From a virus: a stretch of 39,449 nucleotides of DNA. The position numbers and the translations under genes are program-made. Positions 1 through 32,033 of the stretch are shown one piece after another (the stretch's first letter is position 1; each line of letters begins with the position of its first letter). A model generated the notes under the pieces. That model was not told the origin of the DNA and ran no database searches. It worked only from the letters and a program-made list of their open reading frames with translations. Location: the IMG/VR virus record IMGVR_UViG_3300045988_065902, one strand, 5' to 3'.

Positions 1-141
1 CAAATGGAACGCTCAGCTCGCTCAGGCGTGGGCGGTGAAAACTGACGGCAAGGTGACGGAAAACAACCTGCCGGATGGTGCTGAGATAGATTACTCGGCG
101 AAGTACTACGCACAACAGGCCGGGGGTTCGAATAGCGCGGC
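1..141. repeat. Terminal overlap identical to 39309..39449, indicating a circular or terminally redundant assembly with unique length 39308 bp
   Basis: Base-by-base comparison of the first 141 nt (caaatggaacgctcagctcg...aatagcgcggc) with the last 141 nt shows identity. Confidence 0.95.
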
Positions 142-1192: not shown

Positions 1193-1203
1193 AAGGAGTA
1201 AAC

Positions 1204-1545
1204 ATGAAGAAGGTAGAAAAGTACACCGGGGAAAAAACATATATGTTCCCTAACGGCGCCTTGGCAACGAAGGACGCAGTACTAGAGCAGTTCCCCGCCG
1301 CTTTGGCGTTCGTGCACTACGTTGAAACGGACGAAAATGGTGAGGTGATGTGGGCTTTTCAGAATTTATCTGCGATGCGCACGATGTATAAGATCGACGC
1401 GGCACTCACGGAATCTGAGGCCCTTGCGAAGATTGAAGAGATCATTAACACCGAACCGAAAGTGGACACAACGCCGTCGGCAGAAGAACGCATCGCGGCG
1501 GCACTTGAATATCAGAGCCTTGCATCGATGGAGACAGTGGCATGA
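1204..1545 (+). CDS. Hypothetical protein downstream of the tail fibre (fibre accessory position)
   Basis: AAGGAG precedes the ATG at 1204. The stop overlaps the next ATG (ATGA at 1542-1545). I recognise no motif. Confidence 0.6.
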   Translation: MKKVEKYTGEKTYMFPNGALATKDAVLEQFPAALAFVHYVETDENGEVMWAFQNLSAMRTMYKIDAALTESEALAKIEEIINTEPKVDTTPSAEERIAAALEYQSLASMETVA

Positions 1546-1670: not shown

Positions 1671-2812
1671 TGACGAAAGCGTGCTATGTTGGCGTGGCCG
1701 GTAAGGCTCGCAAGGTCAAAAAAATTTACGTCGGAGTCGCCAACAAGGCGCGCAAAGTCAAAAAGGGCTATGTTGGCGTGGGTGGGAAGGCGAGACCGTT
1801 TTTCTCTGCCGAGCAGAAACTGGAGTACTATGGGACAGTGACGCCGTTAAGCAGTGCAAGATGGCTAGTAGCGGCTACAACAGTAGGAGATTATGCGCTG
1901 TTTGCCGGGGGCGCGGCTCGTTACACATCTGCTTACCCCTTCTATAGTACAGTAGACGCCTACAGCACGTCCCTCGTGCGCAGCAGTCCTACGGAGCTGA
2001 GTAAAACAGGGTGCGACTTAGCCGCGACGTCTGTAGGAGGTTATGCTCTGTTTGGCGGGGGCGCGGCTCTCGGCATAGCTTTTAATACAGTAGACGCCTA
2101 CAGCACGTCCCTCGTGCGCAGCAGTCCTACGGAGCTGAGCCAACAAAAGACCGACTTGGCCGCTACGACTGTAGGAGGTTATGCGCTGTTTGGCGGTGGT
2201 AGTGATGGCGCCCTTCTTGACGCTCAGGCATTCTCTACAGTAGACGCCTACAGCACGTCCCTCGTGCGTAGCAATCCTACGGGGCTGATTCAAGGAAGGT
2301 TCGACTTAGCGGCTACAACCGTAGGAAATTATGGGATGTTTGGTGGTGGTGTCGCGAATGGCTCAACTTTTACCTACGTAGATGCATACAGCCCAGCCCT
2401 AGTGCGATCCAATATAAATATGAGCCAACAAAGGACCAGCTTGGCCGCTACGACTGTAGGAGGTTATGCGCTGTTTGGCGGCGGTGCTACCGGCCGTCAA
2501 GTAGATGCATTCAACGCTTATCTTGTGCTAACCACAACCACAGGATTAAGCCCATCAAGGGACAGAATGGCCGCCACGACCGTGGAGGGGTATGGGCTGT
2601 TTGGCGGGGGTTCTATCTTAGCTAATTTCTCCGGCTCTAATACAGTAGACGCCTACAGCACGTCCCTCGTGAGAAGCACCCCTACACCCCTGAGTCAAGA
2701 AAGGGCCGACTTGGCCGCTACGACTGTAGGAGGTTATGCGCTGTTTGGCGGTGGTAATGATGGCGGTAGTACATCTCTCACCGTAGACGCCTACACAGTA
2801 GGGGGAGGGTAG
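1670..2812 (+). CDS. Seven-blade Kelch-like beta-propeller protein with an N-terminal YVGVxxKARKVKK triple repeat (putative receptor-binding or fibre-associated)
   Basis: There are seven copies of ...DLAATTVGGYALFGGG...TVDAYSTSLVRSxPT... Several blades share near-identical DNA: a 53-nt block starts at 1949 and at 2087, and shorter copies start at 2237 and 2642. Confidence 0.7.
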   Translation: MTKACYVGVAGKARKVKKIYVGVANKARKVKKGYVGVGGKARPFFSAEQKLEYYGTVTPLSSARWLVAATTVGDYALFAGGAARYTSAYPFYSTVDAYSTSLVRSSPTELSKTGCDLAATSVGGYALFGGGAALGIAFNTVDAYSTSLVRSSPTELSQQKTDLAATTVGGYALFGGGSDGALLDAQAFSTVDAYSTSLVRSNPTGLIQGRFDLAATTVGNYGMFGGGVANGSTFTYVDAYSPALVRSNINMSQQRTSLAATTVGGYALFGGGATGRQVDAFNAYLVLTTTTGLSPSRDRMAATTVEGYGLFGGGSILANFSGSNTVDAYSTSLVRSTPTPLSQERADLAATTVGGYALFGGGNDGGSTSLTVDAYTVGGG

Positions 2813-2887
2813 CCAGCCATCGAAGCCTGATCCTGATGACCCGCACAACAAGTATCCTGGCGGCTCATGGCCCGATAAAACCCCCTA

Positions 2888-2911
2888 GGGCGGCAGGTGC
2901 CGCCCTTTTTG
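2888..2911 (+). terminator. Rho-independent terminator
   Basis: Hairpin GGGCGGC-aggt-GCCGCCC followed by T5. Confidence 0.75.
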
Positions 2912-2953
2912 TTAGCTCCTCAGCTTGGGTACGTTTTGTACCCTGACTGCTAC

Positions 2954-2980
2954 GCCCCTCCGTGTGAGGGGCTTTTTTTT
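2954..2980 (+). terminator. Rho-independent terminator, the second of a tandem pair; an extra hairpin gggtac-gtttt-gtaccc lies at 2927-2943
   Basis: Hairpin GCCCCTC-cgtgt-GAGGGGC followed by T8. Confidence 0.8.
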
Positions 2981-2992
2981 ATAGGTGTTGCC

Positions 2993-3544
2993 ATGTACTT
3001 GCGATGGCTTTGCTTTTTACCGGCATCCCTTGCCTTCGACGTTTTCGGACGTCTGCTAACGCCGCTCGTCGTTCTCTTTGCCGATAAAGACGGCTGGCTA
3101 CCGTCATGGCTTTGGTGGTGGCAGACGCCGGACAATCCTATTGACGGCGACGCCGGGCACCTTGCGCGATGGGGCATATCAACCGCCCCGCTGGCGACAT
3201 ACGTTCGGCGTGTAGCGTGGCTTTGGCGAAACTGCGGCTACGGCTTCAACATTGACGTCATCGGCTTTCACCATCAGGCCGGAGACGTGAAGCAGGTCGA
3301 TGGCGATCCAACGATTGGCGACACTTCGGGAATTTCGGGCGTGTGCCGGTGGAAGGTGTTTCGTGACGGAAAGCCTGTCTGCTGGCAGTTCTACTACGTG
3401 AAGCACTACCGGATTTTTGGAGTTTGGAAGTGCGTTCGCATTGGCGCCGGTTGGAAAATTTGGGGTGAGCCCGTCCCGGGATATGTTTACGGTCAACACT
3501 GGGTTTACTTTCACCCAATGAAGGGCTCAGGCCGAAACAATTGA
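2993..3544 (+). CDS. Hypothetical Trp-rich protein with a hydrophobic N-terminus
   Basis: The track ORF 2897..3544 would begin inside the terminators. An in-frame ATG at 2993 follows AGGTG. The sequence contains WLPSWLWWWQTPDNPIDGD. I do not know the function. Confidence 0.55.
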   Translation: MYLRWLCFLPASLAFDVFGRLLTPLVVLFADKDGWLPSWLWWWQTPDNPIDGDAGHLARWGISTAPLATYVRRVAWLWRNCGYGFNIDVIGFHHQAGDVKQVDGDPTIGDTSGISGVCRWKVFRDGKPVCWQFYYVKHYRIFGVWKCVRIGAGWKIWGEPVPGYVYGQHWVYFHPMKGSGRNN

Positions 3545-3565
3545 TATATGCCGGAGAGGGTGCGC

Positions 3566-4063
3566 ATGACGAATGACTTTATGCCGGTAGGCACCGAGAA
3601 AATACTCGCCGCGGCAGTGGGCGCCCTCACCGGCGCCCTTTCGTTTTTCTTCGGGCTCGATACCAAGCCGCTCATTATTTGGCTCGCGATCTTTATCGCC
3701 GCCGACATCGTGACCGGCATGGCGGCGGCGTTCGTCAATCGAGACTTCGAAAGCCGGTGCGTCTCGCGAGGGCTTTTGAAAAAGGGGCTGATGTTTATTG
3801 TCGTAGGCTTTGCGCACGGCCTAGATGTGCAGTTTTCCTACACGCTGAACTATCTCGCAGTGTTTCAGGGCATTGTCATAGCGGCCTACGGCTTCACAGA
3901 GTTCATGAGCATCATTGAGAACCTTGACCGGATGAATCTTGGCGGGTGCATTCCTGCAATCATTCGCAAAGCACTCAAACAGATTAACGCCCGACTGGAC
4001 GAATCAGTAGAGGAGATCGGCAACAAGCCGAAGGATGGCAAAAATGAAAATCGGATACTTTGA
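3566..4063 (+). CDS. Holin (phage_holin_4_1-like)
   Basis: Multiple TM segments are present, together with the motifs D.VTG....F and FTEFMSIIENL....IP typical of that holin family. GGAGAGGG lies 5 nt before the ATG at 3566; the alternative start is 3548. Confidence 0.75.
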   Translation: MTNDFMPVGTEKILAAAVGALTGALSFFFGLDTKPLIIWLAIFIAADIVTGMAAAFVNRDFESRCVSRGLLKKGLMFIVVGFAHGLDVQFSYTLNYLAVFQGIVIAAYGFTEFMSIIENLDRMNLGGCIPAIIRKALKQINARLDESVEEIGNKPKDGKNENRIL

Positions 4064-16793: not shown

Positions 16794-17207
16794 ATGGCCG
16801 AAAATACTCATCCCAAAAATGGCGAAAGAATACCGAAGCCGTTAGGACGTAGACCGATTGAAATCGACCTGAAGAAGGTTGAGGAGTACGCGCAAGTCTG
16901 CGACAATGAGGAGGAAATCGCCCTTGCGTTGGGGATTTCTCAGGACACGTTGACGCGCCGCAAGCAGAACTATGCGGAATTTGCGGCCGCGATTAAAAGA
17001 GGTAAGGCCAAGGCAAATGTGTTCGTCGGCGGCAAGCTGATGGATCAAATCAAGAACGGAAACATTGCCGCGACGATTTTCTATCTTAAGTCGCGATGCG
17101 GGTGGAAGGAAACTCAGCGCCTAGAAGGCGATTTGACCACAACAGCGAAACCGCCCGAGGGCTTGCAGGATATTTACAACGCGCTGGCCCGCGGGACCAA
17201 GCAATGA
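16794..17207 (+). CDS. terS: Terminase small subunit
   Basis: HTH-type N-terminus (EEIALALGISQDTLTRRKQNYAEFAAAIKRGKAKA) and ...AATIFYLKSRCGWKE, typical of small terminases. ATGA-coupled to terL. Confidence 0.75.
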   Translation: MAENTHPKNGERIPKPLGRRPIEIDLKKVEEYAQVCDNEEEIALALGISQDTLTRRKQNYAEFAAAIKRGKAKANVFVGGKLMDQIKNGNIAATIFYLKSRCGWKETQRLEGDLTTTAKPPEGLQDIYNALARGTKQ

Positions 17208-19366
17208 CAACCAATAGCGCCGACCCATTCGTCGAACTGTACAGGCCGCACCGATACAAGGTGTTTTACGGGGGGCGAGGCAGTGGCAAGAGCTGGGCAG
17301 TCGCACGCGCGCTAATCGCCATGGCTGATTTCGGGCGGGTGCGCATTTTGTGCTGCCGTGAGGTGCAGAACTCTATCCGCGATTCGTCGTATCAGACGCT
17401 GAAAGACACAGCGGAGCGCATGGGCTTATTTGACCGGTTCGACTTCAAAGAGTCTGAGATAGAGCATAAGCGTACCGGAAGCCGCTTTATCTTCTCGGGC
17501 CTCTTGCGTAATGAGAACTCGATTAGGTCAAAGGAAGGCATTGATATTTGCTGGATTGAGGAGGCATCATCCGTTTCGCGCAAATCGTGGGACGTGCTGA
17601 TTCCGACCATCCGCAAACCCGGGTCAGAGTTGTGGCTGACGTTCAACCCGCTCACGGTCGACGACCCAACGAATGATTTCCTAGAGACACCGCCCCCGGG
17701 CGCCTACGTTCGCAAGGTCAACTATACGGACAACCCGTATTTCCCTGAAGTCCTTCGGGAGCAGATGGAATGGGACAAGGCGAACGATTACGAGAAGTAT
17801 CAGCACATTTGGGAGGGCTTCCCGCTCACCATCAGCGGGGCGCAGATTTTCCGCGGCAAGTACGTCGTCGAGTCGATTCCGGACGATCTTTGGCAACAGG
17901 CAGACCGGCTGTTTTTCGGCGCCGACTTCGGTTTTGCGCGTGACCCGTCGACGCTCGTTCGGTGCTTCATATTGGATAATCGCCTGTATATTGACTATGA
18001 GGCGTATGGCGTCGGCGTTGAAATCGACGAGTTGCCTCAGCTGTATCGCTCGGTGCCCGAGTCGACGAAATGGCCGATTAAGGCGGACTGCGCCCGGCCT
18101 GAGACAATCAGCTATCTGAAACGCCACGGGTTCAACATCGAGGGCGCCGAGAAATGGCCGGGGAGCATCGAGGAAGGCATTAGCTTTATTCGAAGCTTCG
18201 ATAAGGTCGTTATCGACCCGCGATGTGTGCACACGGCGGACGAGTTCAGGCTGTACTCGTACAAAACGGATAGACTGACTGGCGAGGTTCTGCCGGTCGT
18301 CTTAGACAAAAACAACCACTGCATAGCAGAAGGGGCATTGATTAGGACAATCAATGGCGATGTTCCTATTGAAAGAATCAAGGTCGGCGACTTGGTTTTG
18401 ACAAGGATGGGATTTAAGCGGGTTTTGGCTAGTGCGATTACTGGCGAAAACAGAGAAGTCCTAGAAATAACAACTGGTTCAGAGGTGTTAAAATGTACCG
18501 CAGAGCATCGAATCTTTACAAAGAATCGAGGCTTTGTTGAGGCACAAAATTTAACTACTCAGGACGTGTTGTTATGCCTAAAGCAGAAACCATTATTTAC
18601 GACGGGAAGCGCTGGAACAGATATCCGGAATCAGAAAGGCGAAGCGACAGAGCTTATTTCAAGCGATCTGTTACCGGCGGGGCAATATGGTTGCACAGAT
18701 ACATTTGGGAGAAAGCTAACGGAGCAATCCCGAAAGGCGCGCATATCCATCACAAAGATGGGAACACGCTTAATAACGATCTGTCAAACCTTGAGTGCCT
18801 TACGCCGAAGGCTCATAGAAAAAACCATCCCATTGTCGGTGAAGCTCGTGAAAGACAGCTTAAGCACCTCGAAGGCATCAGAGAGAAAACGAAAGCCTGG
18901 CACGCTTCTAAGGAAGGACACGAATGGCACAAGGCGCACGCTAAAGCACACCACTGGGGGGTTTTTGACTTACCGGAGAAGAAGTGCGCCCATTGTGGGA
19001 AAATCTTTAAGCCTAAAACATATCGCGGAAAGTTCTGCTCAAACGCGTGTAAATCGGCGTGGCGGAGAGATCAAGGACTTGATAACGTCGAAAGGATTTG
19101 CGCTCAATGCGGAAAGGGTTTTACCTGCAACAAGTACAGCAAACATCGTTTTTGTTCTAAAAGCTGTGCGAGGCGTTACGAAGGTATGCAAAAAAGAAAA
19201 ACGGGTTTATGACCTAACAATTGAAGGTCAGCCGGAGTTTTTCGCAAATGGAATTTTGGTTCACAACTGTATCGATGGAATCAGGTATTCCCTGGCAGAT
19301 TACATAAAGGCACGAGGCTATGGCTTCAAAATCTCGGAAGACGAAACGCCCGACCTCTGGCTTTGA
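17204..19366 (+). CDS. terL: Terminase large subunit (PBSX/Terminase_3-like) precursor interrupted by an intein; the spliced product would be 404 aa
   Basis: Walker A YGGRGSGKSWA, then CCREVQNS and WIEEA (Walker B region). The nuclease motif DKNNH|...|CIDGIRY is split by the intein. The true start is the ATG at 17204, not the track start at 17096. Confidence 0.9.
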   Translation: MTTNSADPFVELYRPHRYKVFYGGRGSGKSWAVARALIAMADFGRVRILCCREVQNSIRDSSYQTLKDTAERMGLFDRFDFKESEIEHKRTGSRFIFSGLLRNENSIRSKEGIDICWIEEASSVSRKSWDVLIPTIRKPGSELWLTFNPLTVDDPTNDFLETPPPGAYVRKVNYTDNPYFPEVLREQMEWDKANDYEKYQHIWEGFPLTISGAQIFRGKYVVESIPDDLWQQADRLFFGADFGFARDPSTLVRCFILDNRLYIDYEAYGVGVEIDELPQLYRSVPESTKWPIKADCARPETISYLKRHGFNIEGAEKWPGSIEEGISFIRSFDKVVIDPRCVHTADEFRLYSYKTDRLTGEVLPVVLDKNNHCIAEGALIRTINGDVPIERIKVGDLVLTRMGFKRVLASAITGENREVLEITTGSEVLKCTAEHRIFTKNRGFVEAQNLTTQDVLLCLKQKPLFTTGSAGTDIRNQKGEATELISSDLLPAGQYGCTDTFGRKLTEQSRKARISITKMGTRLITICQTLSALRRRLIEKTIPLSVKLVKDSLSTSKASERKRKPGTLLRKDTNGTRRTLKHTTGGFLTYRRRSAPIVGKSLSLKHIAESSAQTRVNRRGGEIKDLITSKGFALNAERVLPATSTANIVFVLKAVRGVTKVCKKEKRVYDLTIEGQPEFFANGILVHNCIDGIRYSLADYIKARGYGFKISEDETPDLWL
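18320..19267 (+). mobile_element. Intein 1 (316 aa) in terL
   Basis: Starts CIAEGALIRTINGDVPIERIKVGDLV (block A). Block B is KCTAEHRIFT. The C-terminus is VYDLTIEGQPEFFANGILVHN followed by the +1 Cys (19268). The central roughly 210 codons in this frame show no endonuclease motif. Confidence 0.85.
18574..19212 (+). CDS. HNH homing endonuclease with two C-terminal CxxC...FCSxxC zinc-ribbon repeats, encoded in a different frame inside intein 1
   Basis: WLHRYIWEKANGAIPKGAHIHHKDGNTLNNDLSNLECLTPKAHRKNH is a canonical HNH. The zinc repeats are CAHCGKIF...FCSNAC and CAQCGKGF...FCSKSC. An in-frame TGA lies at 18538-18540, and there is a weak AGGA 9 nt before the ATG. Confidence 0.8.
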   Translation: MPKAETIIYDGKRWNRYPESERRSDRAYFKRSVTGGAIWLHRYIWEKANGAIPKGAHIHHKDGNTLNNDLSNLECLTPKAHRKNHPIVGEARERQLKHLEGIREKTKAWHASKEGHEWHKAHAKAHHWGVFDLPEKKCAHCGKIFKPKTYRGKFCSNACKSAWRRDQGLDNVERICAQCGKGFTCNKYSKHRFCSKSCARRYEGMQKRKTGL

Positions 19367-20807
19367 GGTCACCGGCGAATATGACGGCTCCTCAACGGTG
19401 GTAGACGCTATCCCGCAAGAGAAAGACATTCGCGAACTACTCAAGCCCGCGCGGTCACTCGCAGGGTCAAAAGCGCACTACAAACAGCTAGACGGCGCTA
19501 TGGACGCGGCTTTTGCGGGCGGCATTGTGCCTAAATTCGAATGGTCAGCGATCTCAAGCCTTGTCAGCTTTGTCGGCTACGGCGTTTTGCAACAGCTTTC
19601 GCAAGACGCGCTCATTCGCCTGTGCATTCAAACCCGCACAGATGAGATGCTGCGGGCGTGGATTGAAATCAAGTGCGACGACGACAAGCGCAAGAAGGCA
19701 CTTGAGGAAGAGATTGTCCGGATCGGCTTGCGCGATACGCTTTACAAAGCGCTCACGACCATGGGCATGATGGGTGGCGCCTTCGTGTTTATCGACACGG
19801 GGCACGCCAAGCCGGATGAAGTACTCAATAAGACATCACGCTCGACGGAGCTTAAAGACCGCGTATCGTTCCGCGTGATTGATCCGATCTTCACGACGCC
19901 GCAGAGCTTTAACGCGTCTGACCCGCTGAAAGAAGACTTTTACAAACCCGCGGTGTTCTACATCATGGGCACGGCGGTGCATACGTCGCGCCTGATCCGA
20001 CTTGTTGAGAACGAGGTACCGGACTTACTCAAGCCGTCGTATAACTTCTTCGGCATCGCTCAGGCGCAGTTGCTTTCGGACTACGTGACGCACTTCCGCA
20101 AGAACCGCGAGGAAGTAAATACGCTTCTTACAAAGTTCTCGACGAGCTTCATTAAGACCGATTTGGGCGCTCAGCTCTTTGCCCGTAAGTCGTGGCAACC
20201 GGTGAGCGACCGCGTGAAGTTCTTTGCGAAGTTCCGAGACAATAGCGGCGTCGGCCTTCTCGATAAGGACAAAGAAGACTTCGTGCAGGTCAACACGCCG
20301 ATTACGGGCCTCACTGACATTGTGCGCCAGTCGCTTGAGTTCGTCGTGTCCGTCAACCAAAGCGGTGTAGTGAAGACGCTCGGGCTGTCGCCTTCGGGCT
20401 TTAATGCTACGGGCGAGAGCGACATTAAGTTGCAGGCCGACTTAATCGCCACGCGGCAGGAGAAGATTCTGCGCCGCCCGCTTGAGGAGATACTGCGCAT
20501 TTTGCAGATCAATCTCTTTGGTGACATTGATCCTAGTTTGAGCTTTGAATTCTGTTCGCTGGACGAAGACGACGAGCGCACGACGGCGGAGGTCAAGAAG
20601 ATGATGGCCGACACGGCCGCCGTTTACCTTGACCGCGGCGTGCTCTCAGAGGACGAAGTCCGCGCGGCGTTGAGTAATGCCAAGGATCATCCGTATGGCG
20701 ATCTTGAGGGTGAAGCCCCCGGGGCGCCGGAAGACCCGTTCGGGCAAATGAGCAGCACGACTACGGAGGAGCGCGATGACATCGACAAGGCGGGCGCCGT
20801 CTACTGA
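19320..20807 (+). CDS. Portal protein
   Basis: 495-aa ORF directly after terL, with an acidic C-terminus. The position and size are typical. The family (DUF1073-like) is recalled from sequence character only. Confidence 0.7.
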   Translation: MASKSRKTKRPTSGFEVTGEYDGSSTVVDAIPQEKDIRELLKPARSLAGSKAHYKQLDGAMDAAFAGGIVPKFEWSAISSLVSFVGYGVLQQLSQDALIRLCIQTRTDEMLRAWIEIKCDDDKRKKALEEEIVRIGLRDTLYKALTTMGMMGGAFVFIDTGHAKPDEVLNKTSRSTELKDRVSFRVIDPIFTTPQSFNASDPLKEDFYKPAVFYIMGTAVHTSRLIRLVENEVPDLLKPSYNFFGIAQAQLLSDYVTHFRKNREEVNTLLTKFSTSFIKTDLGAQLFARKSWQPVSDRVKFFAKFRDNSGVGLLDKDKEDFVQVNTPITGLTDIVRQSLEFVVSVNQSGVVKTLGLSPSGFNATGESDIKLQADLIATRQEKILRRPLEEILRILQINLFGDIDPSLSFEFCSLDEDDERTTAEVKKMMADTAAVYLDRGVLSEDEVRAALSNAKDHPYGDLEGEAPGAPEDPFGQMSSTTTEERDDIDKAGAVY

Positions 20808-22587
20808 CGTACGCATACGAGCCGTGCGGCCGAATGCAGGGCTTCGGAAGGCGTACGCGGGCAAACTGCGCTCGCTCGTGCGTCAGATGGCGCAGGACGT
20901 CGCCAAAGAACTTGAGGGGCTGTATCGCAAGGTCGAGCCGCGGATTGCGAAAGACGCTAAGGCTGAGTCCCCTGCCGAGCGCTTGCAAAAGATCATTGAC
21001 CGGATGCGGAAGAAGTGGGAAGAAAGCACGCGCGACTTTGCCGAAGACACAGCGGATTGGTTTGTCCGGAAGACGCGGGACCACGTCGACCGGGCGCAGA
21101 ACTCAGCGCTACGGGCCTCGGGGTTTGATGCCTTCGACCTGCGTTTTGACAAGGGGCAGATTTCGCAAGACGCTTTTGACGCACTTGTGAACGCCAATAC
21201 GTCGCTCATTAAGTCCATCAGCTCCCGATATCTTCAGGAAGTCGAGGGGCTTGTCATGCGTGCCGTGACCGATGGGCGAGACGTAGCGGGGCTTAAGTCC
21301 GAGCTATCCAAGCGCTACGACATCACTCAGCGCCGTGCCGACCTCATTGCCCGCGATCAGTGCAATAAGGCGACCGAAGCCCTGTGCCGCGCGAATGATT
21401 TAGAGGTTGGTGTAGAGCAGGGCGAATGGATTCACGTACCAGGCAAGCACACGAGCCGCGAGACACACAAGGCGATGGACGGCAAAAAGTTCGACCTAAA
21501 AAAAGGACTTTACGACCGCGATGTTGGGCGCTACGTCCTCCCCGGGGAATTGCCGGCCTGTTTTGTTGGGGAATCAAAGCTTAACGATCTTCCATTCCCA
21601 ATGAAGCTGTATCGGCGTCTCTACACGGGAAAATTGGCCGAGTTCATTACGGACGACGGCACAGTGTGTAGTGCGACACCGAATCACCCAGTACTCACGC
21701 TTAAAGGGTGGAAGCCCGCGCGCCTTCTCGACAAGGGAGATTATTTGATCCATAAAAAGCGGACAGATTGCTCCCTCATCAAAGAACTCAACGCAGATTG
21801 GGTTGTACCCACATTCGAGGAGCTTTTTGATGCGCTTGTTCTCGACGGCGTTCCCGCCTCGGTATCTGAGGGTTCCGCAGGTCAATTCCACGGCGACGGG
21901 TCCGACGGCAAAGTCGACGTTATAGACGTCTACGGCCTTCTGACGAACGAAGTCAATGCCGAGCTGAGTCAGGTATGTGGCAAATTCGGCCTCTCCTTTG
22001 CCGAAGCGGCCGACTTTGCCCGTTTGCTCTCGGGATTGCGCCCATCGGACGCGTTCATCGTGCGGGTGAGTAATTCCGGTGACGGCAAGATTGGCGGCCT
22101 TTGTGATCGCTTTTCGAGCTTCTTCAGAAGCTTGAGCAAAACGCAAAAGCTGTGCTTCTTGAATCCCGCGAATTTTGACCCCAGCTCTTTCGAGCCTTCG
22201 CCGGATGGCTTGACGGCCAACGTTGAAATGTTTGGCAATAGCCTGCTCGGATTGTCCGCTTTGGTACATGGTGATGATTTCATCCTCGGGCAGCTGGATG
22301 CGATCGCCCGTGCGGCGGTAAACGGGGATTTCTATTCCTCTCTTCCGAAGGTGCTTGCTGATGATGTCGGCGGAAAACCCGATCTCTTTTGCGATTTGAA
22401 TGAGGCGCTTGCCTTCGGATACGGCCTTAGCCGCGTGAGCGAAGTGCGATTCCGTGAATTTTTTGGACATGTGTACAACCTCCAAACTCAGGTTAATTGG
22501 TACATTGTAAATAATACCGTGGTTCACAATTGCCAGTGTACGTATCGTCCAATATTGAGTAGGAAGCTATGGAAAAAGAACTCTTAG
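20776..22587 (+). CDS. Head morphogenesis protein (Mu F / SPP1 gp7-like) precursor interrupted by an intein; the spliced product would be 279 aa
   Basis: WIHVPGKHTSRETHKAMDGKKF...LPGELPA|intein|CQCTYRPI reconstitutes the Mu F-family C-terminal PG....C.C...P motif. GGAGGAG precedes the ATG. Confidence 0.8.
   Translation: MTSTRRAPSTDVRIRAVRPNAGLRKAYAGKLRSLVRQMAQDVAKELEGLYRKVEPRIAKDAKAESPAERLQKIIDRMRKKWEESTRDFAEDTADWFVRKTRDHVDRAQNSALRASGFDAFDLRFDKGQISQDAFDALVNANTSLIKSISSRYLQEVEGLVMRAVTDGRDVAGLKSELSKRYDITQRRADLIARDQCNKATEALCRANDLEVGVEQGEWIHVPGKHTSRETHKAMDGKKFDLKKGLYDRDVGRYVLPGELPACFVGESKLNDLPFPMKLYRRLYTGKLAEFITDDGTVCSATPNHPVLTLKGWKPARLLDKGDYLIHKKRTDCSLIKELNADWVVPTFEELFDALVLDGVPASVSEGSAGQFHGDGSDGKVDVIDVYGLLTNEVNAELSQVCGKFGLSFAEAADFARLLSGLRPSDAFIVRVSNSGDGKIGGLCDRFSSFFRSLSKTQKLCFLNPANFDPSSFEPSPDGLTANVEMFGNSLLGLSALVHGDDFILGQLDAIARAAVNGDFYSSLPKVLADDVGGKPDLFCDLNEALAFGYGLSRVSEVRFREFFGHVYNLQTQVNWYIVNNTVVHNCQCTYRPILSRKLWKKNS
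21559..22530 (+). mobile_element. Intein 2 (324 aa) in the MuF-like gene
   Basis: Starts CFVGESKL (block A). Block B is SATPNHPVLTLKGWKPARLLDKGD. The C-terminus is GHVYNLQTQVNWYIVNNTVVHN followed by the +1 Cys (22531). I see no LAGLIDADG, HNH or GIY-YIG motif in the sense frame. Confidence 0.8.
21574..22470 (-). CDS. HTH + Vsr/DUF559-like PD-(D/E)xK endonuclease (298 aa), antisense and codon-aligned inside intein 2
   Basis: GGAGG lies 8 nt before the ATG at 22470 (MSKKFTESHF). Two HTH units are present (LIQIAKEIGFSADIISKHLRKRGI; SEQAIAKHFNVGRQAIRRRLERAGV), followed by GEAEFATYLTQLGIDFVRQKAVDVYNVDFAVGPVAVELTCG...NKRIKKLLECGYNPICV. Confidence 0.7.
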   Translation of the reverse strand: MSKKFTESHFAHAAKAVSEGKRLIQIAKEIGFSADIISKHLRKRGIEIPVYRRTGDRIQLPEDEIITMYQSGQSEQAIAKHFNVGRQAIRRRLERAGVKIRGIQEAQLLRFAQASEEARKAITKAANLAVTGITHPHDERVRWAQSREQTGKVGRFGKGEAEFATYLTQLGIDFVRQKAVDVYNVDFAVGPVAVELTCGTLRYRGGNAVENKRIKKLLECGYNPICVEFFDEGAICPLFMDQIISLVEKARGLPPFKREYWVIRCRTTHCAVVRNELGQFSRVETPIQLHWEWKIVKL

Positions 22588-24257: not shown

Positions 24258-24281
24258 TCTTTTTTGAAAGGTGGATTAGAA

Positions 24282-25304
24282 ATGGCACGAAGTGAAACCA
24301 TGGAGCGCCTTGGCTTTGACCTGTGCAAAGGCAACGGGCGTTTTCTTCCGACTCAGAACGGCACTGCCGATATCGCGATGGACGCTGCTTTGCAGACCGT
24401 CGCCAACGTGCAGACCCCTGCTCTGTTTGCAACCTACTATAGCCCTGAGATTGTCGAAATCCTTCAGGCTCCCCGCAACTCGACGGAGATTTTCTCCGAA
24501 GAAAAGCGCGGCGACTGGAAGGACGTTCAGACGATGTTCCCGGCTGTCGAATACGTTGGTCAGACGACGGCATACAGCGACTACGGTCGTGGCCTGCTGT
24601 CTGAAGCCAACATTGAGCAGGTGACTCGCGAAACCTACAAGTTCCAGACCTTTATTCAGATCGGCGACTTGGAAGAAGATATCGCGACGGCTCAGAAGAT
24701 CAATTTGCTGTCTGAAAAACAGCGCGCCGCGGCAACCGCGATCGAAATCGACGCCAACAATTACAACCTGTTTGGCGTCGCCGGTATGTCCATCTATGGC
24801 CTTCTGAACGATCCGGCACTGCCTGCCGCCCTGTCGCCCGCTGCCGTCGATACTAAAACGGCATGGGCCGACAAGGATGCGAACGCGATTTATAACGACA
24901 TCCTTTCGATGTTCAATCAGATCGCCGCCGCGTCCAATGGCTACGTGAGCTTTAACAGCAAGCTGAAACTGGTGGTGCCGCCGTCCATCATGGGACAGTT
25001 GGCCAAAACGACGACCCTCGGCGTCGCGCCCGTTCTTCAGACTCTTAAGGGCTTCTTCCCGGGCCTTGAGATCATCTCGCTCCCGCAGCTTCAGGATGAC
25101 ACGGGCGTTTGCAAAGCCATGCTGATCGCGACGGAAATCGCAGGACGGCCTACGGCTAAATTCGGCTTCCTCGAAAAACTGAAGACCTATCCGGTTCTCG
25201 TCGAGCACTCTTCCATGTCTCAGAAGTGGGCATCGTCCACTACCGGCTGTCTGTTGTTCCGTCCGTTCGCTGTTGCGACGATGACGGGTATTCAGAAGTC
25301 GTAA
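24282..25304 (+). CDS. Major capsid protein
   Basis: AGGTGG lies 6 nt before the ATG at 24282. It is a 340-aa ORF in the capsid position and is followed by stem-loops. The family (DUF2184-like) is recalled from memory, not searched. Confidence 0.7.
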   Translation: MARSETMERLGFDLCKGNGRFLPTQNGTADIAMDAALQTVANVQTPALFATYYSPEIVEILQAPRNSTEIFSEEKRGDWKDVQTMFPAVEYVGQTTAYSDYGRGLLSEANIEQVTRETYKFQTFIQIGDLEEDIATAQKINLLSEKQRAAATAIEIDANNYNLFGVAGMSIYGLLNDPALPAALSPAAVDTKTAWADKDANAIYNDILSMFNQIAAASNGYVSFNSKLKLVVPPSIMGQLAKTTTLGVAPVLQTLKGFFPGLEIISLPQLQDDTGVCKAMLIATEIAGRPTAKFGFLEKLKTYPVLVEHSSMSQKWASSTTGCLLFRPFAVATMTGIQKS

Positions 25305-25310
25305 TAACCT

Positions 25311-25380
25311 GATCATTTTGACAATGCTGTCAAGTTGATCATGCCCCGGGGAGGGCTGGCGCTCTCCCCGTTCAATATTT
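25311..25380 (+). terminator. Two stem-loops downstream of the capsid gene (attenuator or RNA-stability element)
   Basis: An 11/13 inverted repeat gatcattttgaca-atgc-tgtcaagttgatc (25311-25340) and CGGGGAG-10 nt-CTCCCCG (25347-25370) followed by ttcaatattt. Confidence 0.35.
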
Positions 25381-25395
25381 AAGGAAACAGAAAAA

Positions 25396-25833
25396 ATGGC
25401 CAATCAGGAAACTAAAGTGAAGCGTGCCCCGAGCGCTCCGAAAGTCAAGGTAATCAGCGAAGACGGCGCCACGGTGAGCGTCGGCAACACTGCCAAGACG
25501 TCGGATACGGTCACGATCCTTTTCCGCTCCCGCATCTCTCAGAAGTTCACGCTGAGTAACGGCAAGAGCGTCACCATCAACGGCAACGGCGTATATCTTG
25601 CGAACGCCTCGGGCGGCGCACTGCCTGCCGGTGGGTACGGCGTGACGGTTGTCGACCGCGCTTTATGGGAGCAGGTGAAGGCCGAACTCGGTCAGGCTTA
25701 TGGCCCGTGGTTCGCATCCGGTCGCATCAAGGAAAAGAAGAGCGAGGCGCAGGGCTTGAATTTCGCGATTGACCACGCCGACGAAAAGACGGGCGACGAC
25801 CCGATGCCTCAAAAGAATTCAACGAAGGAATAA
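25396..25833 (+). CDS. Hypothetical virion-module protein, 145 aa
   Basis: AAGGAAA precedes the ATG. The ORF lies within the head module. Confidence 0.55.
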   Translation: MANQETKVKRAPSAPKVKVISEDGATVSVGNTAKTSDTVTILFRSRISQKFTLSNGKSVTINGNGVYLANASGGALPAGGYGVTVVDRALWEQVKAELGQAYGPWFASGRIKEKKSEAQGLNFAIDHADEKTGDDPMPQKNSTKE

Positions 25834-27172: not shown

Positions 27173-27710
27173 AGACATATCGCAGGCCGACATACTGAAC
27201 GCGTGCATTAAGTTCTGCTACAACTTCGCGGCCCCGACCCTCACTGACGAGATGCACGTTCTTGACGGCTTCGGCAACAATAGAACGCTCCCGAAGGACG
27301 GCAATGATTTCTGTATTGTCACCCCGATTCGCCAGTCCCGAAGCGGCTCAAACATTGAGAGCTGGAAGCCTGACGGCGAGGAGGTGATGGAGCTTGCCGA
27401 GTACGTCAATCTAGACATTCAAATCGACGTCTATTCGACGAACATATTCGACGCATTGGAGCGTGCGCAGACCTATGAAACGGTCGCGCGTTCTGATTTC
27501 GGCGTGCAACACTTCTTAGCGTTCGGCATTGACTGTTTATTTGCCGAAGACGTTCAGAACCTGACCGCCGTAATGGATTCCAAACAGTACGTGAGCCGTT
27601 GGACTCTCGTTCTGCACTTGGGCTATTGGAAGCGCGTGAAACTCGCGCAGGATTTTTTCAAAACCGCAATTGTCGATGTGATAAACGTCGACACGAAATA
27701 CAAACCATGA
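27159..27710 (+). CDS. Hypothetical tail-terminator/neck candidate
   Basis: ORF immediately before the sheath gene. The assignment rests on position only. Confidence 0.4.
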   Translation: MAAVKDISQADILNACIKFCYNFAAPTLTDEMHVLDGFGNNRTLPKDGNDFCIVTPIRQSRSGSNIESWKPDGEEVMELAEYVNLDIQIDVYSTNIFDALERAQTYETVARSDFGVQHFLAFGIDCLFAEDVQNLTAVMDSKQYVSRWTLVLHLGYWKRVKLAQDFFKTAIVDVINVDTKYKP

Positions 27711-27718
27711 GGTAAAAA

Positions 27719-29221
27719 ATGACAATTCCAGCTGGTTATCTTGTCGCGATCTCGCCGCGCACCATCAGCGCGGGCGCTTCCGATCTTGAAACGAACGGCA
27801 TGGTGCTCACGAAGAGCGCACTGCTCCCGACCGGAGCCCCGGCCGTCGCCTTCGCCTCGGCCTCCGCTGTATCCGATTTCTTCGGTCCGGACTCCGACGA
27901 AGCTCGCTTTGCTCAGCAGTACTTCACGGGCCTGACGAATCAGCAGAAGGCACCGACTGCGCTCGTGATCGGGCGCCGCATCAATGAAGATTGTGCCGCG
28001 TGGATTCGAGGCGCCAGAGTTTCCGCCGACTTGGCCGCATTCAAGGCCATCAAGGACGGCACCATGAAGCTCACGATTGACGGCGCGGAAAAGACCGCCG
28101 CAAAGGTTGACCTCTCGGGCGCCACGTCTCTCTCGGATGTCGCCACGAAGATTGCGACGGCCCTGACCGGTTGCACGGGCTCTTACGATTCGAACACGCA
28201 GACATTTACGTTCACATCGACGACGAAGGGCGCCACGTCTACTGTGGGCTATGCCTCTGCGGGAGAAGGTGGCACGGACCTCTCTGCGAAACTCAACCTG
28301 ACGCAGGCCGCGGGTGCCGTCCTTTCTCAGGGCGCAGCGGCTCAGACCGAAGCGGCTACGCTTGATGCCGTCCGCTCCGTTACGTCCAACTGGGCGCAGT
28401 TCACGACCTTGTGGGAAGTCACTGACAAGGCAGAGGCCGAAGCCTATGCCGCGTGGGCCGATATCGAAGACGATTTTGTGTATGTCTTCTGGTCGAGTGA
28501 CACGAAGATGACGAGCACGCTGACGCAGGAATCGACTATCGCCTACGCGATGAAGGATCGCTATAACTGCACCTTCCCGATCTATGCTCAGGACTACGTT
28601 ACGGCGGCTTTTGCCGTGGCCTACCCGGCTACGATCAAGTGGGATGCGACGCAGGGCATGAAGGTCATTTTTGGCAAGACGGCGAGCGGCCTGACGCCGA
28701 CGGTGACGACCGAGCAGGAAGCTCAGGCGCTTGACGCTCTCGCCGTCTCTTACATCGGCCAGTTTGCCACGCGTAATGATCAGTTCCAGTTCACGAACCG
28801 CGGCGCCCTTTGCAACCCGGCCATGTACGGGTTCTATGACACGCTGATTGGCTCGATTTGGCTTCGCTCCAAATTGCAGACCTCGATTATGAAGGGCTTC
28901 GCTACGGTCAACCGTGCGCCCTACAATGCGACGGGCTTCACGATGCTCAAATCGTGGTGCCAAGACCCGATCACGCAGGCATTGAATGCGGGCGTCATTG
29001 ACGCGGGCATTAGCCTTAGCGACAGTCAGAAAGCGCAGATCATGCAGGAAACGGGCAACGAAGAGGCACCGCGCGAACTGCAAAGCAAGGGATATTTCTT
29101 GCAGGTGCTCGATCCGGGCGCGTCCGTTCGCGCTCAGCGCGGTGCCCCGATCTCGCAACTTTATTACGCTTACAGCGGAAGTATCGCCCGCGTCTCCCTT
29201 CCTGTAACGGCAGTGTTATAG
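27719..29221 (+). CDS. Contractile tail sheath protein (DUF3383-like)
   Basis: 500-aa ORF preceding the tube, chaperone and tape-measure genes. The N-terminus MTIPAGYLVAISPRTISAG... resembles the DUF3383 sheath family. Confidence 0.65.
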   Translation: MTIPAGYLVAISPRTISAGASDLETNGMVLTKSALLPTGAPAVAFASASAVSDFFGPDSDEARFAQQYFTGLTNQQKAPTALVIGRRINEDCAAWIRGARVSADLAAFKAIKDGTMKLTIDGAEKTAAKVDLSGATSLSDVATKIATALTGCTGSYDSNTQTFTFTSTTKGATSTVGYASAGEGGTDLSAKLNLTQAAGAVLSQGAAAQTEAATLDAVRSVTSNWAQFTTLWEVTDKAEAEAYAAWADIEDDFVYVFWSSDTKMTSTLTQESTIAYAMKDRYNCTFPIYAQDYVTAAFAVAYPATIKWDATQGMKVIFGKTASGLTPTVTTEQEAQALDALAVSYIGQFATRNDQFQFTNRGALCNPAMYGFYDTLIGSIWLRSKLQTSIMKGFATVNRAPYNATGFTMLKSWCQDPITQALNAGVIDAGISLSDSQKAQIMQETGNEEAPRELQSKGYFLQVLDPGASVRAQRGAPISQLYYAYSGSIARVSLPVTAVL

Positions 29222-30130: not shown

Positions 30131-30312
30131 AAGTCAAAGGAACGTCGGCACTAGCGAATCTCCCGCCGGTTTGCGGTCGTGCCGTTTCCTCGCGGCTAGC
30201 GAGCCTGCGGGAGGTTCAAACCTATTACAGCCTGCAAGACGTCTACGACCTCGATGAGGTTTTGACCTTGCAGAACTACCATGAATGGCTTGCAAGCCGC
30301 AGGGATGATTGA
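29717..30312 (+). CDS. Tail assembly chaperone, -1 frameshift-extended form (lambda G-T / P2 E-E' analogue)
   Basis: The -1 frame is open from the slippery site to the TGA at 30310-30312, which overlaps the tape-measure ATG. The extension ends ...LREVQTYYSLQDVYDLDEVLTLQNYHEWLASRRDD. Confidence 0.6.
30067..30073 (+). promoter_or_regulatory. -1 programmed ribosomal frameshift heptamer T_TTT_TTC
   Basis: X_XXY_YYZ in the chaperone zero frame (codons TTT 30068-70, TTC 30071-73). Confidence 0.6.
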
Positions 30313-32033
30313 TGTCTGTCATTGACGAATTACTGATTTCCATCGGGCTTGACGCGAAGGAGTTTGCCAAGGGCGTCGATGCCGTTCGTGGGAAGGTCGA
30401 GAACTTTGCGACAAAGGCAAAGGAGCAATTTGAAGCGGTCGGCACGCAGTCGAAAGACACGGGCGCCGTTTCTGCGCTCTCTTTCTCGCGTGCTGGCGAA
30501 CGCGTGCAAAAGCTCGGCGAAGCGTCGAAAGAAGCCGCCTCGGCTATTGCCGATTCCTTCAAAGGTGCTGCGCCCGCCATTGAGCTGGTGCGCTCAAAGC
30601 TCGGACTGTTGGCCGCGACCTTCGGGCTTGTGGCCGGTGGTGCGCAGACGTTCGGCAACTATGTCGATAAGTCGGAATCGCTTGCGAGGTTGTCGACTCA
30701 GCTCGGTGTGTCGGTGCGCGAGCTTGACGCATTCGGGAAGGCCGCAGAGGCCGCCGGGGGTTCTGCCGAATCAATCTTTGCCTCGATGAAGACTTACTTC
30801 CAGCAGACCGGGCGACCGGCTGAGGAAGTCTTTCAGCTTGCGAGCAAAGTCGAGGGCATGAGTCGCGGTGCGGCTCAGCGCTTCTTACAGGCTCAGGGCG
30901 TGGCGCTCGATGCCATCCCTATCTTCCTGCAAGGACAAAAGGCGCTCGATGCCTTAATGGCGAAGTACCGCAAGACGGCTTTTACTGCGCAGGACAGTCG
31001 GAACGCCCGCGCGTTCAAAGTCGCGTGGATGGATTTCAAGATTGCGGCGCAAGACGTCGGCAATGTGTTCGTGCGGCTGGTGCTCCCGGGCGTCACAAGG
31101 TTGCTTGACGGCTTAAGCGGCCTTGTCGGGATTATCCGCGAGAACTCACGTGCCTTTGCCCTGCTCGCGGTCGGGTTCGGGCTTGTGTTTGGGCTTAAAA
31201 ACCTGAATGCGATTAAGAACGCGATTCTTGCCGTGCGGACCTTCGGCATGGCCGTCAAGATGGCGGCCCTGCCGGTGACGGTAATCGCGGCAGGCGTAGC
31301 GGCCCTGGTGCTCGCTATTGACGACCTGATTGGCTTTGCACAAGGCGCCGACAGTCTTTTTGAGCGAATGCTTAAGAAGATGGGCGCCGGTGCCGCCGAC
31401 ATCGAAGAGTTGCGCGAGAGCTTGAAAACGCTCGGCGAGGGCTTTACATGGCTGTGGGACAAGGTCAAGCCGCTTTTAGGCGGCGCCCTGGCGCTTGTCT
31501 TTAAAGCCGTGTCGGTCGTTATTGTCGGGCTGGTTGCCGCCATTAACGGCGTTGTCATCGGCTTTAACACGCTTTGGCAGACGGCGAAAAAGGTCGGCAA
31601 GGGCATAGCCTCAGTCTTTACGGCTATTCCGGACGCGATCATTGAGGCGCTAAAAACGGCATGGCAGACGCTTACCGGGTGGTTCGATGACGCCGCCGAT
31701 CTCATTAAAAATAAGATTGGCGAACCCATTAAGGGGCTTTTTGGCGGCATCGGTAAATTCCTCGGCTTTAGCGGCGACAAGGCCGACGACGAGGAGAAGA
31801 AGAACCAGCCCACGAGCACCCGCGAGCGTGAGATTGTCGTTGTGAAGCAGGCGGCATATAAGGCCGCCGCCCCCAACGTCGTCACTAACGCAAGCATGAA
31901 TGTCGTGAACAACATCGAGACAAGAGACAACGCGCAGGCCATCAGCCGAGCCATCGGCACCACGGTCACGGGCGGTTTCAACCGTCAGGCGGAACTTATC
32001 GGCCAGTCGACGCGCGGCGTCAATTTGAAGTGA
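30312..32033 (+). CDS. Tail tape measure protein
   Basis: Longest tail-module ORF, directly after the chaperone pair. It has an Ala/Gly-rich helical N-part and hydrophobic central segments (LLAVGFGLVFGL, AALPVTVIAAGVAALVLAI). Confidence 0.8.
   Translation: MSVIDELLISIGLDAKEFAKGVDAVRGKVENFATKAKEQFEAVGTQSKDTGAVSALSFSRAGERVQKLGEASKEAASAIADSFKGAAPAIELVRSKLGLLAATFGLVAGGAQTFGNYVDKSESLARLSTQLGVSVRELDAFGKAAEAAGGSAESIFASMKTYFQQTGRPAEEVFQLASKVEGMSRGAAQRFLQAQGVALDAIPIFLQGQKALDALMAKYRKTAFTAQDSRNARAFKVAWMDFKIAAQDVGNVFVRLVLPGVTRLLDGLSGLVGIIRENSRAFALLAVGFGLVFGLKNLNAIKNAILAVRTFGMAVKMAALPVTVIAAGVAALVLAIDDLIGFAQGADSLFERMLKKMGAGAADIEELRESLKTLGEGFTWLWDKVKPLLGGALALVFKAVSVVIVGLVAAINGVVIGFNTLWQTAKKVGKGIASVFTAIPDAIIEALKTAWQTLTGWFDDAADLIKNKIGEPIKGLFGGIGKFLGFSGDKADDEEKKNQPTSTREREIVVVKQAAYKAAAPNVVTNASMNVVNNIETRDNAQAISRAIGTTVTGGFNRQAELIGQSTRGVNLK

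Follow-up and report, generated by a model that had tools for sequence, protein, structure and literature searches.

Can an intein carry a homing endonuclease within its DNA that forms no part of its polypeptide? The question is raised by terL, the gene for the terminase large subunit (TerL), in the virus of IMG/VR record IMGVR_UViG_3300045988_065902, of which the whole stretch of 39,449 nucleotides (nt) was analysed and is called the window below. A predicted class-1 intein interrupts the nuclease motif of this terL gene, and the DNA between the two splicing domains of the intein also contains, in the −1 frame of the same strand, a complete gene for an HNH endonuclease with two zinc ribbons (Table 1). 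The arrangement is probably a mobile two-part element, in which the homing endonuclease is encoded as a separate gene overprinted on the intein.

Architecture of the terL intein and its HNH gene

The terL reading frame is free of stop codons over 17096..19366, and its likely start is at 17204, as judged from the N-termini of the homologues P0122 and P0126 and from an ATGA overlap with the upstream open reading frame (ORF) 16794..17207. The gene is a single ORF of 720 codons rather than a split-gene, or fractured, arrangement, and its product matches the Pfam families Terminase_3, Terminase_3C and Intein_splicing, the last with 48.2 bits on the intein alone against a cut-off of 35.8. The borders and block B of the intein read NNH/CIAEGALIR, CTAEH and ANGILVHN/CIDGIRY (slashes denote the splice junctions), and at the equivalent place the intein-less homologue L003 has AYNH/YWDATAYAL. 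The features of a class-1 intein are all present in the sequence, namely Cys at position 1, T-x-x-H in block B, a terminal His-Asn pair and Cys at position +1, and among 23 aligned inteins T60, H63 and N316 are invariant and H315 is nearly so.

Between the splicing domains lies a linker of which Lys, Arg, Ser and Thr make up 42%, which matches no Pfam family and which is missing from the mini-intein relatives considered below. In the AlphaFold2 model of the intein-frame product, the pLDDT values (predicted local distance difference test; Table 1) suggest that the two splicing domains fold well around an unstructured linker. The G+C content drops to 0.41-0.52 within the intein, compared with 0.55-0.59 (about 0.57) in the flanks.

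The same DNA encodes, in the −1 frame, an ORF of 212 amino acids (aa) that matches Pfam HNH_3 (E=4.8e-17, 61.8 bits against a cut-off of 24.8) and phrog_15471, 'HNH endonuclease' (E=5e-38), and that has no Endonuclease_7 (E<0.1), LAGLIDADG or Vsr match in Pfam. Its ATG falls within the Leu-Cys codons (tTA TGc) that close the N-terminal splicing domain, 11 codons downstream of a TGA in its own frame at 18538-40, and its stop, the TGA at 19210-12, is formed within the Tyr-Asp codons (taT GAc) of block F. The remaining forward frame contains 26 stops across the region. A total of 270 homologues of the HNH protein were found, and in an alignment of 46 homologues the residues H59, H60, N68, N72 and H85 as well as all eight zinc-ribbon cysteines are invariant, with D62, N67 and H81 nearly so.

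AlphaFold2, supplied with the 46-sequence alignment, models the HNH protein with a mean pLDDT of 94.1. While a sequence search of the PDB with the HNH protein gave nothing significant, the top fold match of the model is the homing endonuclease I-HmuI (1u3e), with a probability of 0.99 but over 82 columns only, with E=0.065 and TM scores of 0.27-0.32, and the C-terminal ribbons resemble the YacG zinc fingers with fold-match probabilities of 0.84-0.93. Structured protein is encoded in both frames over short stretches only, some 4 codons at the 5′ border and some 20 at the 3′ border. In the 3′ stretch, two β-strands and the start of block F of the intein share their DNA with the terminal helix and the last zinc-ribbon cysteines of the HNH protein; the first 20 or so codons of the C-terminal splicing region are dual-coding because the same DNA encodes the C-terminus of the HNH protein.

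Much of this had been proposed in an earlier note on this DNA, made from the letters alone: a complete set of splicing blocks in the terL frame, a Lys/Arg/Ser/Thr-rich linker with no endonuclease motif, a 212-aa HNH ORF with two zinc ribbons in another frame together with the positions of its start and stop, and relatively AT-rich DNA that is open in two frames. All of these points hold, and profile searches place Intein_splicing in the terL frame and HNH_3 in the −1 frame.

Table 1 Features of the terL intein and the overprinted HNH gene in the window.
Feature	Position	Strand	Description	Basis
TerL precursor gene	17204..19366	+	720 codons from the likely start; 404 aa once spliced (predicted)	ORF list, Pfam
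N-extein	17204..18319	+	ATPase domain plus the greater part of the RNaseH-like nuclease domain; C-terminal end ...VLDKNNH	Pfam
Class-1 intein (predicted)	18320..19267	+	316 codons in the terL frame; Cys1, block B CTAEH, blocks F/G VYDLTIEGQPEFFANGILVHN, +1 Cys	Sequence, Pfam
N-terminal splicing domain	18320..18589	+	Intein residues 1-90	AlphaFold2 pLDDT 91-97; own profile hidden Markov model (HMM) matches all relatives
Shine-Dalgarno-like AGGA	18561..18564	+	9 nt 5′ of the HNH ATG, within intein codons	Sequence
HNH homing-endonuclease gene (predicted)	18574..19212	+	212 aa, −1 frame relative to terL	Pfam HNH_3
In-frame linker	18590..19150	+	Intein residues ~91-277, ~190 codons, stop-free; +1-frame read-through of the HNH gene	pLDDT 34-70
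HNH catalytic motif HIHHKDGNTLNNDLSNLECLTPKAHRKNH	18742..18828	+	HNH residues 57-85	46-homologue alignment
Two CxxC...CxxxC zinc ribbons	18985..19167	+	HNH residues 138-159 and 176-198; presumed DNA-binding modules	
C-terminal splicing region	19151..19267	+	Intein residues 278-316, blocks F and G	pLDDT >90; alignment to mini-inteins
C-extein	19268..19366	+	Begins CIDGIRY (conserved nuclease-domain motif)	Sequence

Stop avoidance and selection in the overlapping frames

For the window taken by itself, the argument that the doubly open DNA is not due to chance is moderate, as synonymous recoding of the HNH gene leaves the terL frame without a stop with a probability of 0.1-7%, depending on the codon table. 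Since a probability of up to 7% is too weak, comparative controls were used, for which the locus set consisted of 83 fetched HNH relatives (35-90% identity; IMG/VR supplied 80 of them and contig look-ups the other three) and the window itself, 84 loci in total. In 71 of these the +1 frame relative to HNH, which is the terL frame in the window, has no stop over the whole of the HNH gene and belongs to a through-running ORF of 360-1120 codons; the +2 frame contains many stops at every one of the 84 loci.

Free-standing homologues of the HNH gene provide the control, and the comparison with them is decisive. Over the same homologous stretch the 13 free-standing copies contain 3-12 stops, with a mean of 8.2, against none in the nested copies of the 71 loci. 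The dipeptide sites at which a stop could potentially arise are similarly numerous in both groups (17.3 in free-standing and 15.2 in nested copies), which indicates that the nested copies avoid stops mainly by their choice of codons. When the codons of nested copies are shuffled synonymously within each gene, 1.9 stops appear on average, and the median probability of obtaining none is 0.07 per gene.

The frames also differ in how they have changed. Nine pairs of nested copies with 70-99.5% DNA identity show 331, 198 and 678 differences at HNH codon positions 1, 2 and 3, respectively, and since HNH position 3 coincides with position 2 of the terL codons, it is the HNH frame that is being conserved. 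When the window is compared with L001 and L004, the relatives nearest to it, the ratio of non-synonymous to synonymous substitution rates (dN/dS) amounts to 0.20 in the HNH frame and to 1.3 in the terL frame of the DNA shared with HNH; it is 0.19 in the N-terminal splicing domain and 0.04 in the N-extein (against L004). The comparison supports purifying selection on the HNH frame and suggests that the overlapping intein frame is without amino-acid constraint. The absence of stops, which the earlier note had named as a check, is found among the nested homologues.

Recurrence of the layout

The open frame almost always coincides with an intein. Own profile HMMs recognise both intein halves around HNH at 70 of the 71 open-frame loci, with an N-terminal splicing domain that begins with Cys just 5′ of HNH and, just 3′ of it, blocks F/G ending in His-Asn or Ser-Asn before a Cys, Ser or Thr; the inteins of the nested loci are 278-346 aa long. 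A scan of GTDB, with one genome per species, gave 80 loci, among them 51 nested ones with an open frame, 42 of which have both intein halves recognised, and 29 free-standing HNH genes with a mean of 6.2 stops in the terL-side frame. The host bins belong to Actinobacteria, Firmicutes, Bacteroidota, Chloroflexota, Cyanobacteria, Planctomycetota and archaea, and the same −1-frame layout is present at more than 110 independent loci. A HMMER scan of 1.84 billion cluster representatives found 298 clusters at E<=1e-30 and 1896 at E<=1e-10.

Three isolated phages have the −1-frame HNH beneath one uninterrupted coding sequence (CDS) annotated as 'terminase large subunit', which in each is the sole terL gene and in which the intein and the HNH gene are both unannotated: Acinetobacter phage vB_AbaM_Highwayman (L087, OZ038341.1), Tetrasphaera phage TJE1 (L088, HQ225832.1) and Clostridium phage phiCDHM19 (L089, NC_028996.1). 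The propagation of these isolates speaks for the viability of the layout and is an indirect hint of splicing. In a tblastn search of the phage collection, TJE1 was the sole actinophage among the matches listed. When the terL DNA was compared with the phage collection, near or distant, matches to the exteins were weak and matches to the intein were absent. The corresponding region of Clostridium phage phiCD119 (L092, NC_007917.1) is annotated as three separate CDSs.

The unit is found in two TerL families, Terminase_3 and Terminase_6 (6N/6C), and its insertion points cluster around the nuclease motif, as NNH/C-IDALRY, DA/C-RYA, DH./C-DALRY and HDD./C-DAL. A host other than a terminase is also known, an NlpC/P60-type hydrolase gene with an intein and a −1-frame HNH at locus L091 (P0138), 178..1440, which points to a switch of host gene. 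Two further loci, L037 and L058, encode TerL precursors of about 1100 aa with two inteins each: one is overprinted by HNH and occupies the nuclease motif, and the other, upstream of it, contains a LAGLIDADG domain in frame.

Proposed translation of the HNH gene

The starts of the nested HNH genes resemble those of independently translated genes. Of 68 nested HNH ORFs, 67 have retained an ATG at the homologous N-terminus, and 43 (63%) have a Shine-Dalgarno-like tetramer 5-18 nt upstream of the start, compared with a background of 17% when positions are drawn at random from the same precursor ORFs (p=2e-17); among free-standing HNH genes the motif is present in 7 of 13. A stable RNA structure was not found at the HNH start (z=+1.0), and the search for an internal promoter gave one sigma-70-like site, at 18467-18494, a count equal to that expected from shuffled sequence. 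As no convincing internal promoter is present, the HNH gene would most simply be translated from the late transcript of terL. Altogether the start signals give good support to the view that the HNH protein would be made as a separate protein by internal initiation.

Empty, decayed and free-standing relatives

Related terL genes include empty, occupied, nonsense and mini-intein alleles, the full series to be expected of a selfish homing element. The element is intact in the window and in L001 and L002. In L004 (IMGVR_UViG_3300045988_062966, 2501..3139), which is 89% identical and the nearest relative of full length, the TAT codon of HNH Tyr17 has become TAA and the 722-codon open stretch of the terL frame, including the intein, remains unbroken; the HNH gene of L004 looks like a freshly inactivated nuclease.

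Another stage is represented by L084 and L085 (P0126; terL of L084 at 2429..4030; extein identity 72%), in which a mini-intein of 133 aa occupies the same NNH/C site of terL and no HNH gene is found near it. The −1 frame of the L084 mini-intein reads MSKVERIFF...CRARYIARKRWGKGL up to a stop and corresponds to both ends of the HNH ORF, the remnant MSKVERIFF...CVQCRARYIARKRWGKGL, likewise closed by a stop, being equivalent to approximately the first 8 and the last 20 HNH codons. Because both ends of the HNH ORF are retained in this frame, the mini-intein is an internal deletion of the full element.

Free-standing HNH genes keep close to terL. The intein-less terL of L003 has one immediately 3′ of it, all 13 of the free-standing copies from IMG/VR adjoin terL, and Acinetobacter phage BP10 has a free copy directly upstream of terS-terL, with the nested form occurring in Highwayman. 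That the free-standing relatives are always beside terL suggests that a terL-targeting free HNH gene entered the linker of an intein.

A model of the two-part element and its alternatives

The likely interpretation of the locus is thus a mobile element that consists of a class-1 intein in the nuclease motif of terL and of a homing endonuclease encoded as a separate overprinted gene. In such a model, ribosomes reading terL would make a 720-aa precursor, in which the Hint fold would assemble around the floppy linker and cis-splice it out to give a TerL of 404 aa, and a minority of the ribosomes on that late mRNA would instead begin at the internal start 18574 and produce free HNH protein. During mixed infection the HNH protein would cut intein-less terL alleles near the insertion site, and repair off the intein-bearing copy would move the intein and HNH together. 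Selection at the level of the phage would hold the terL frame open, mainly by excluding NTA and NTG before purine-initial codons in the HNH frame, and selection at the level of the element would hold HNH intact for as long as empty target alleles persist, after which HNH could decay by a nonsense mutation or by internal deletion to a mini-intein. Following the invasion of the linker, several switches between the nested and the free-standing state would have taken place. The comparative evidence bears out the earlier note in its proposal that the nuclease is separate and that the terL frame stays open just for the precursor; from the same evidence we infer expression of the nuclease and splicing of the intein.

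Several observations weigh against this interpretation. Ribosomes already moving along the terL frame would compete with internal initiation, and neither a promoter nor an RNA structure is conspicuous. Among the 71 open-frame loci, five have no ATG where HNH should begin or contain an HNH gene that is broken, and at one, L056 (2355..3443), the +1 frame is open over HNH in the absence of recognisable intein blocks. The switching between states is read from a neighbour-joining tree that is crude and lacks support values, in which the free-standing copies are scattered over at least five positions among the nested copies. Finally, the proximity of all the free-standing IMG/VR relatives to terL also suits a role in packaging, as considered below. 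The L056 locus itself has an intact HNH ORF 3′ of a terL-like gene, overlapped by the +1 open frame of 362 codons.

Two alternatives concern the reality and the reading of the frame. If an in-frame HNH domain had been displaced by two compensating indels in sequencing or assembly, for which the homopolymer runs near the 3′ junction (caaaaaagaaaaac, 19190-19203) offer an opportunity, the terL frame would not have been kept free of stops across 213 codons; moreover, no in-frame intein-HNH fusion is found among the best 150 cluster representatives of the HMMER scan, all of 160-363 aa. Such an artefact is practically excluded because the same frame offset recurs in IMG/VR, GTDB and isolated phages, over more than 110 independent assemblies and three finished phage genomes. 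A different possibility is that programmed −1 frameshifting near 18547-18553 (A_AAT_TTA) joins the N-extein, the N-terminal half of the intein and HNH into one protein, so that the nuclease would be part of a truncated precursor. The HNH frame is indeed exactly −1 to terL, a formal X_XXY_YYZ heptamer is present in the proper phase at this site, and the metagenomic protein P0009 is such a fusion. However, the heptamer occurs at 3 of 68 loci, no more often than expected from background (~3), a stop lies in the HNH frame no more than 4 codons 5′ of the ATG at 31 of the 68, and the ATG and Shine-Dalgarno-like signals of the HNH start are kept as in free-standing genes. P0009, the one apparent case of an in-frame HNH intein and rejected as such, comes from a 1.2-kb metagenomic contig with a single-base indel at the N-junction, and its +1 frame is still open into the C-terminal half of the intein. 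With the start signals conserved, stops close upstream and the heptamer at background level, frameshifting is unsupported and highly improbable, and internal initiation is favoured.

The other two alternatives concern function. In the main rival to homing, HNH would be a packaging cofactor, a terminase-associated nuclease like those encoded by cos and terminase genes, nested for co-expression with TerL, and the position of the free-standing copies, including that upstream of terS-terL in BP10, agrees with such a role, as do documented zinc-ribbon HNH nickases by cos and terminase genes (PMC3592412). Yet HNH appears dispensable by sequence, given the nonsense allele of L004, the related TerL genes with an HNH-less mini-intein and the many without any intein; the unit is also found in an NlpC/P60 protein, the constant tie to an intein at a conserved catalytic motif is a classic signature of homing, and the family is HNH_3 and the predicted fold perhaps I-HmuI-like, all of which makes the packaging role unlikely. 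Alternatively, the HNH ORF could be a silent relic, an unexpressed and decaying remnant of a free-standing gene within an intein that is inherited only vertically, as the broken or ATG-less HNH of some relatives (L004, L027, L031) and the existence of mini-intein derivatives might suggest. Against this, the window ORF is intact and has the low dN/dS given above, the catalytic and zinc-binding residues are invariant over the 46 homologues, and the full-length ORF is kept at 35-90% identity in about 66 of the 71 open-frame loci, so that a relic is very unlikely.

A wider and more tentative proposal, which is doubtful at present and less probable than not, is that overprinting is a stable, ancient and widespread organisation of intein mobility. 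One lineage of HNH_3/zinc-ribbon nucleases would be associated with one intein lineage, always in the −1 frame, across TerL families, other phage proteins and viruses of bacteria and archaea, with repeated switches between the nested and the free-standing state, and keeping the nuclease off the intein would be an adaptation. If so, internal initiation would give low, late and mRNA-coupled expression of the nuclease and the splicing domain would be spared from folding around a DNA-binding nuclease, and such an adaptation would account for the lack of in-frame versions.

Relation to known systems

The earlier note knew of no description of such an architecture; on this point it is out of date, as non-canonical inteins with a homing endonuclease in another frame or on the other strand have been published (bioRxiv 10.1101/2025.01.02.630785; bioRxiv 10.64898/2026.09.14.751524). 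Already in 1998, according to the papers that cite it, Gorbalenya's 'Non-canonical inteins' described endonuclease homologues in alternative ORFs of a dnaX intein.

The closest parallel is found in a survey of about 800 actinophage inteins, which reported antisense LAGLIDADG and VSR-like endonucleases as well as an endonuclease resembling endonuclease VII which, in part within terL, lies 'in reading frame 3 relative to the intein' (bioRxiv 10.1101/2025.01.02.630785). The endonuclease VII-like case shares with the present one a same-strand ORF between the splicing blocks, in a 'frame 3' that is the −1 frame here, an intein frame that is open but lacks a recognisable fold, terL among the host genes and a proposed origin from free-standing phage endonuclease genes. 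The nuclease is a different one, however, since the protein described here belongs to HNH_3 and combines an I-HmuI-like core with two YacG-like zinc ribbons. Endonuclease VII and HNH nucleases are both members of the His-Me finger superfamily. Unlike the actinophage case, the HNH_3 family studied here extends to archaeal bins and to the phages and prophages of bacteria from many phyla, and the present analysis goes further in quantifying stop avoidance, start signals and deletion derivatives.

Frame-specific selection has been described for a cyanobacterial dnaX intein with an out-of-frame LAGLIDADG endonuclease (Phillips, DeSimone & Gogarten, bioRxiv 10.64898/2026.09.14.751524). There, too, the overlapping ORF is under purifying selection, the dN/dS of the intein frame is inflated, homologous mini-inteins exist and a mini-intein has been proposed to have been invaded secondarily. 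In contrast to that cellular replication gene with a LAGLIDADG endonuclease, the host here is a phage packaging gene and the nuclease an HNH protein, and the mini-intein described here is demonstrably a deletion product that retains both ends of the HNH ORF.

Related principles are seen in three further kinds of element. The ShiLan-type hidden insertions in phage DNA methylases (Arsenault et al. 2025, PMC11855218) also place an out-of-frame HNH within a stop-free host gene, and related free HNH genes lie by the target gene in other phages, but splicing domains are missing from the ShiLan insertion, which is believed to be retained in the protein, whereas here a complete intein flanks HNH, so that the read-through peptide would be removed. 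In fractured genes, split inteins have a free-standing endonuclease gene between their halves (Dassa et al. 2009, PMC2677866), and an endonuclease gene of free-standing type thus occupies the position of the endonuclease domain, as in terL here; its 3′ end often overlaps the downstream intein-C by 6-69 bp (PMC2677866). Fractured genes consist of two host ORFs joined by trans-splicing, however, while the host frame is continuous here and cis-splicing is therefore expected. The present protein shares its nuclease superfamily, its presumed homing role and perhaps its fold with the HNH domains that canonical inteins contain in frame and with free-standing HNH homing endonucleases such as I-HmuI (1u3e), but differs from the former in lying outside the intein polypeptide.

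In the papers on non-canonical inteins and hidden HNH insertions, the HNH endonucleases of true inteins are given solely as in-frame domains (bioRxiv 10.1101/2025.01.02.630785; bioRxiv 10.64898/2026.09.14.751524; PMC11855218). The literature searched contained neither a genuine intein overprinted by an HNH_3/zinc-ribbon nuclease nor a constant −1 HNH frame over more than 110 loci from many phyla, and neither the use of free-standing paralogues as a stop-codon control nor a mini-intein that retains HNH remnants was found there.

The layout has consequences for annotation, as hundreds of terL genes are annotated as one long terminase with the intein and the nuclease gene unmarked, and gene callers that forbid same-strand overlaps systematically hide the overprinted HNH. 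With free-standing, nested, nonsense and deletion-derived mini-intein states side by side, these loci constitute a large body of natural data bearing on the model of 'splicing first, nuclease later', as well as an unusually clean case of selection purely against stop codons, for which the free-standing paralogues are a built-in control. The pairs of mini- and full inteins and the compact zinc-ribbon HNH protein could also be of use as splicing tools and as nicking or cleavage modules.

Other features of the window

Two genes downstream of terL, a Mu-F-like head morphogenesis gene (20776..22587, + strand) contains a second intein of 324 aa at 21559..22530, with the borders CFVGESK...NTVVHN/C, in which Pfam finds no in-frame endonuclease domain. 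An antisense ORF of 317 aa (21574..22527, − strand) fills this intein and matches HTH_7 (E=1.4e-5) and, in its N-terminal region, phrog_8446, 'HNH endonuclease' (E=3e-6). It looks like an antisense-encoded homing endonuclease of the kind found in actinophage minor-capsid inteins; a nuclease domain was not identified in it, and the sequence search of the PDB gave nothing significant. This reading is weakened by the fact that long antisense ORFs are common in the window. Antisense 'shadow' ORFs of 362-511 aa lie opposite structural genes at 24264..25403, 27623..29221 and 30309..32033, so that in this genome a long open antisense frame alone is no evidence of a gene.

A 212-aa alternative-frame ORF at 156..794 (+ strand) was also considered as a second overprinted gene and rejected as a low-complexity by-product. 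It falls within a tail-fibre-like gene (35..1192, + strand) whose Ala/Lys/Ser-rich repeats are open in several frames on both strands, with another such ORF at 106..744 on the − strand.

A codon-position test of the antisense ORF of the second intein against L001 yielded 14 differences, too few to tell which strand is selected. These 14 differences over 573 positions (2.4%; 21640..22212) compare with 71 of 795 in the flanking Mu-F extein and 131 of 1381 in the portal gene (~9%), and the second intein may have been transferred horizontally in the recent past.

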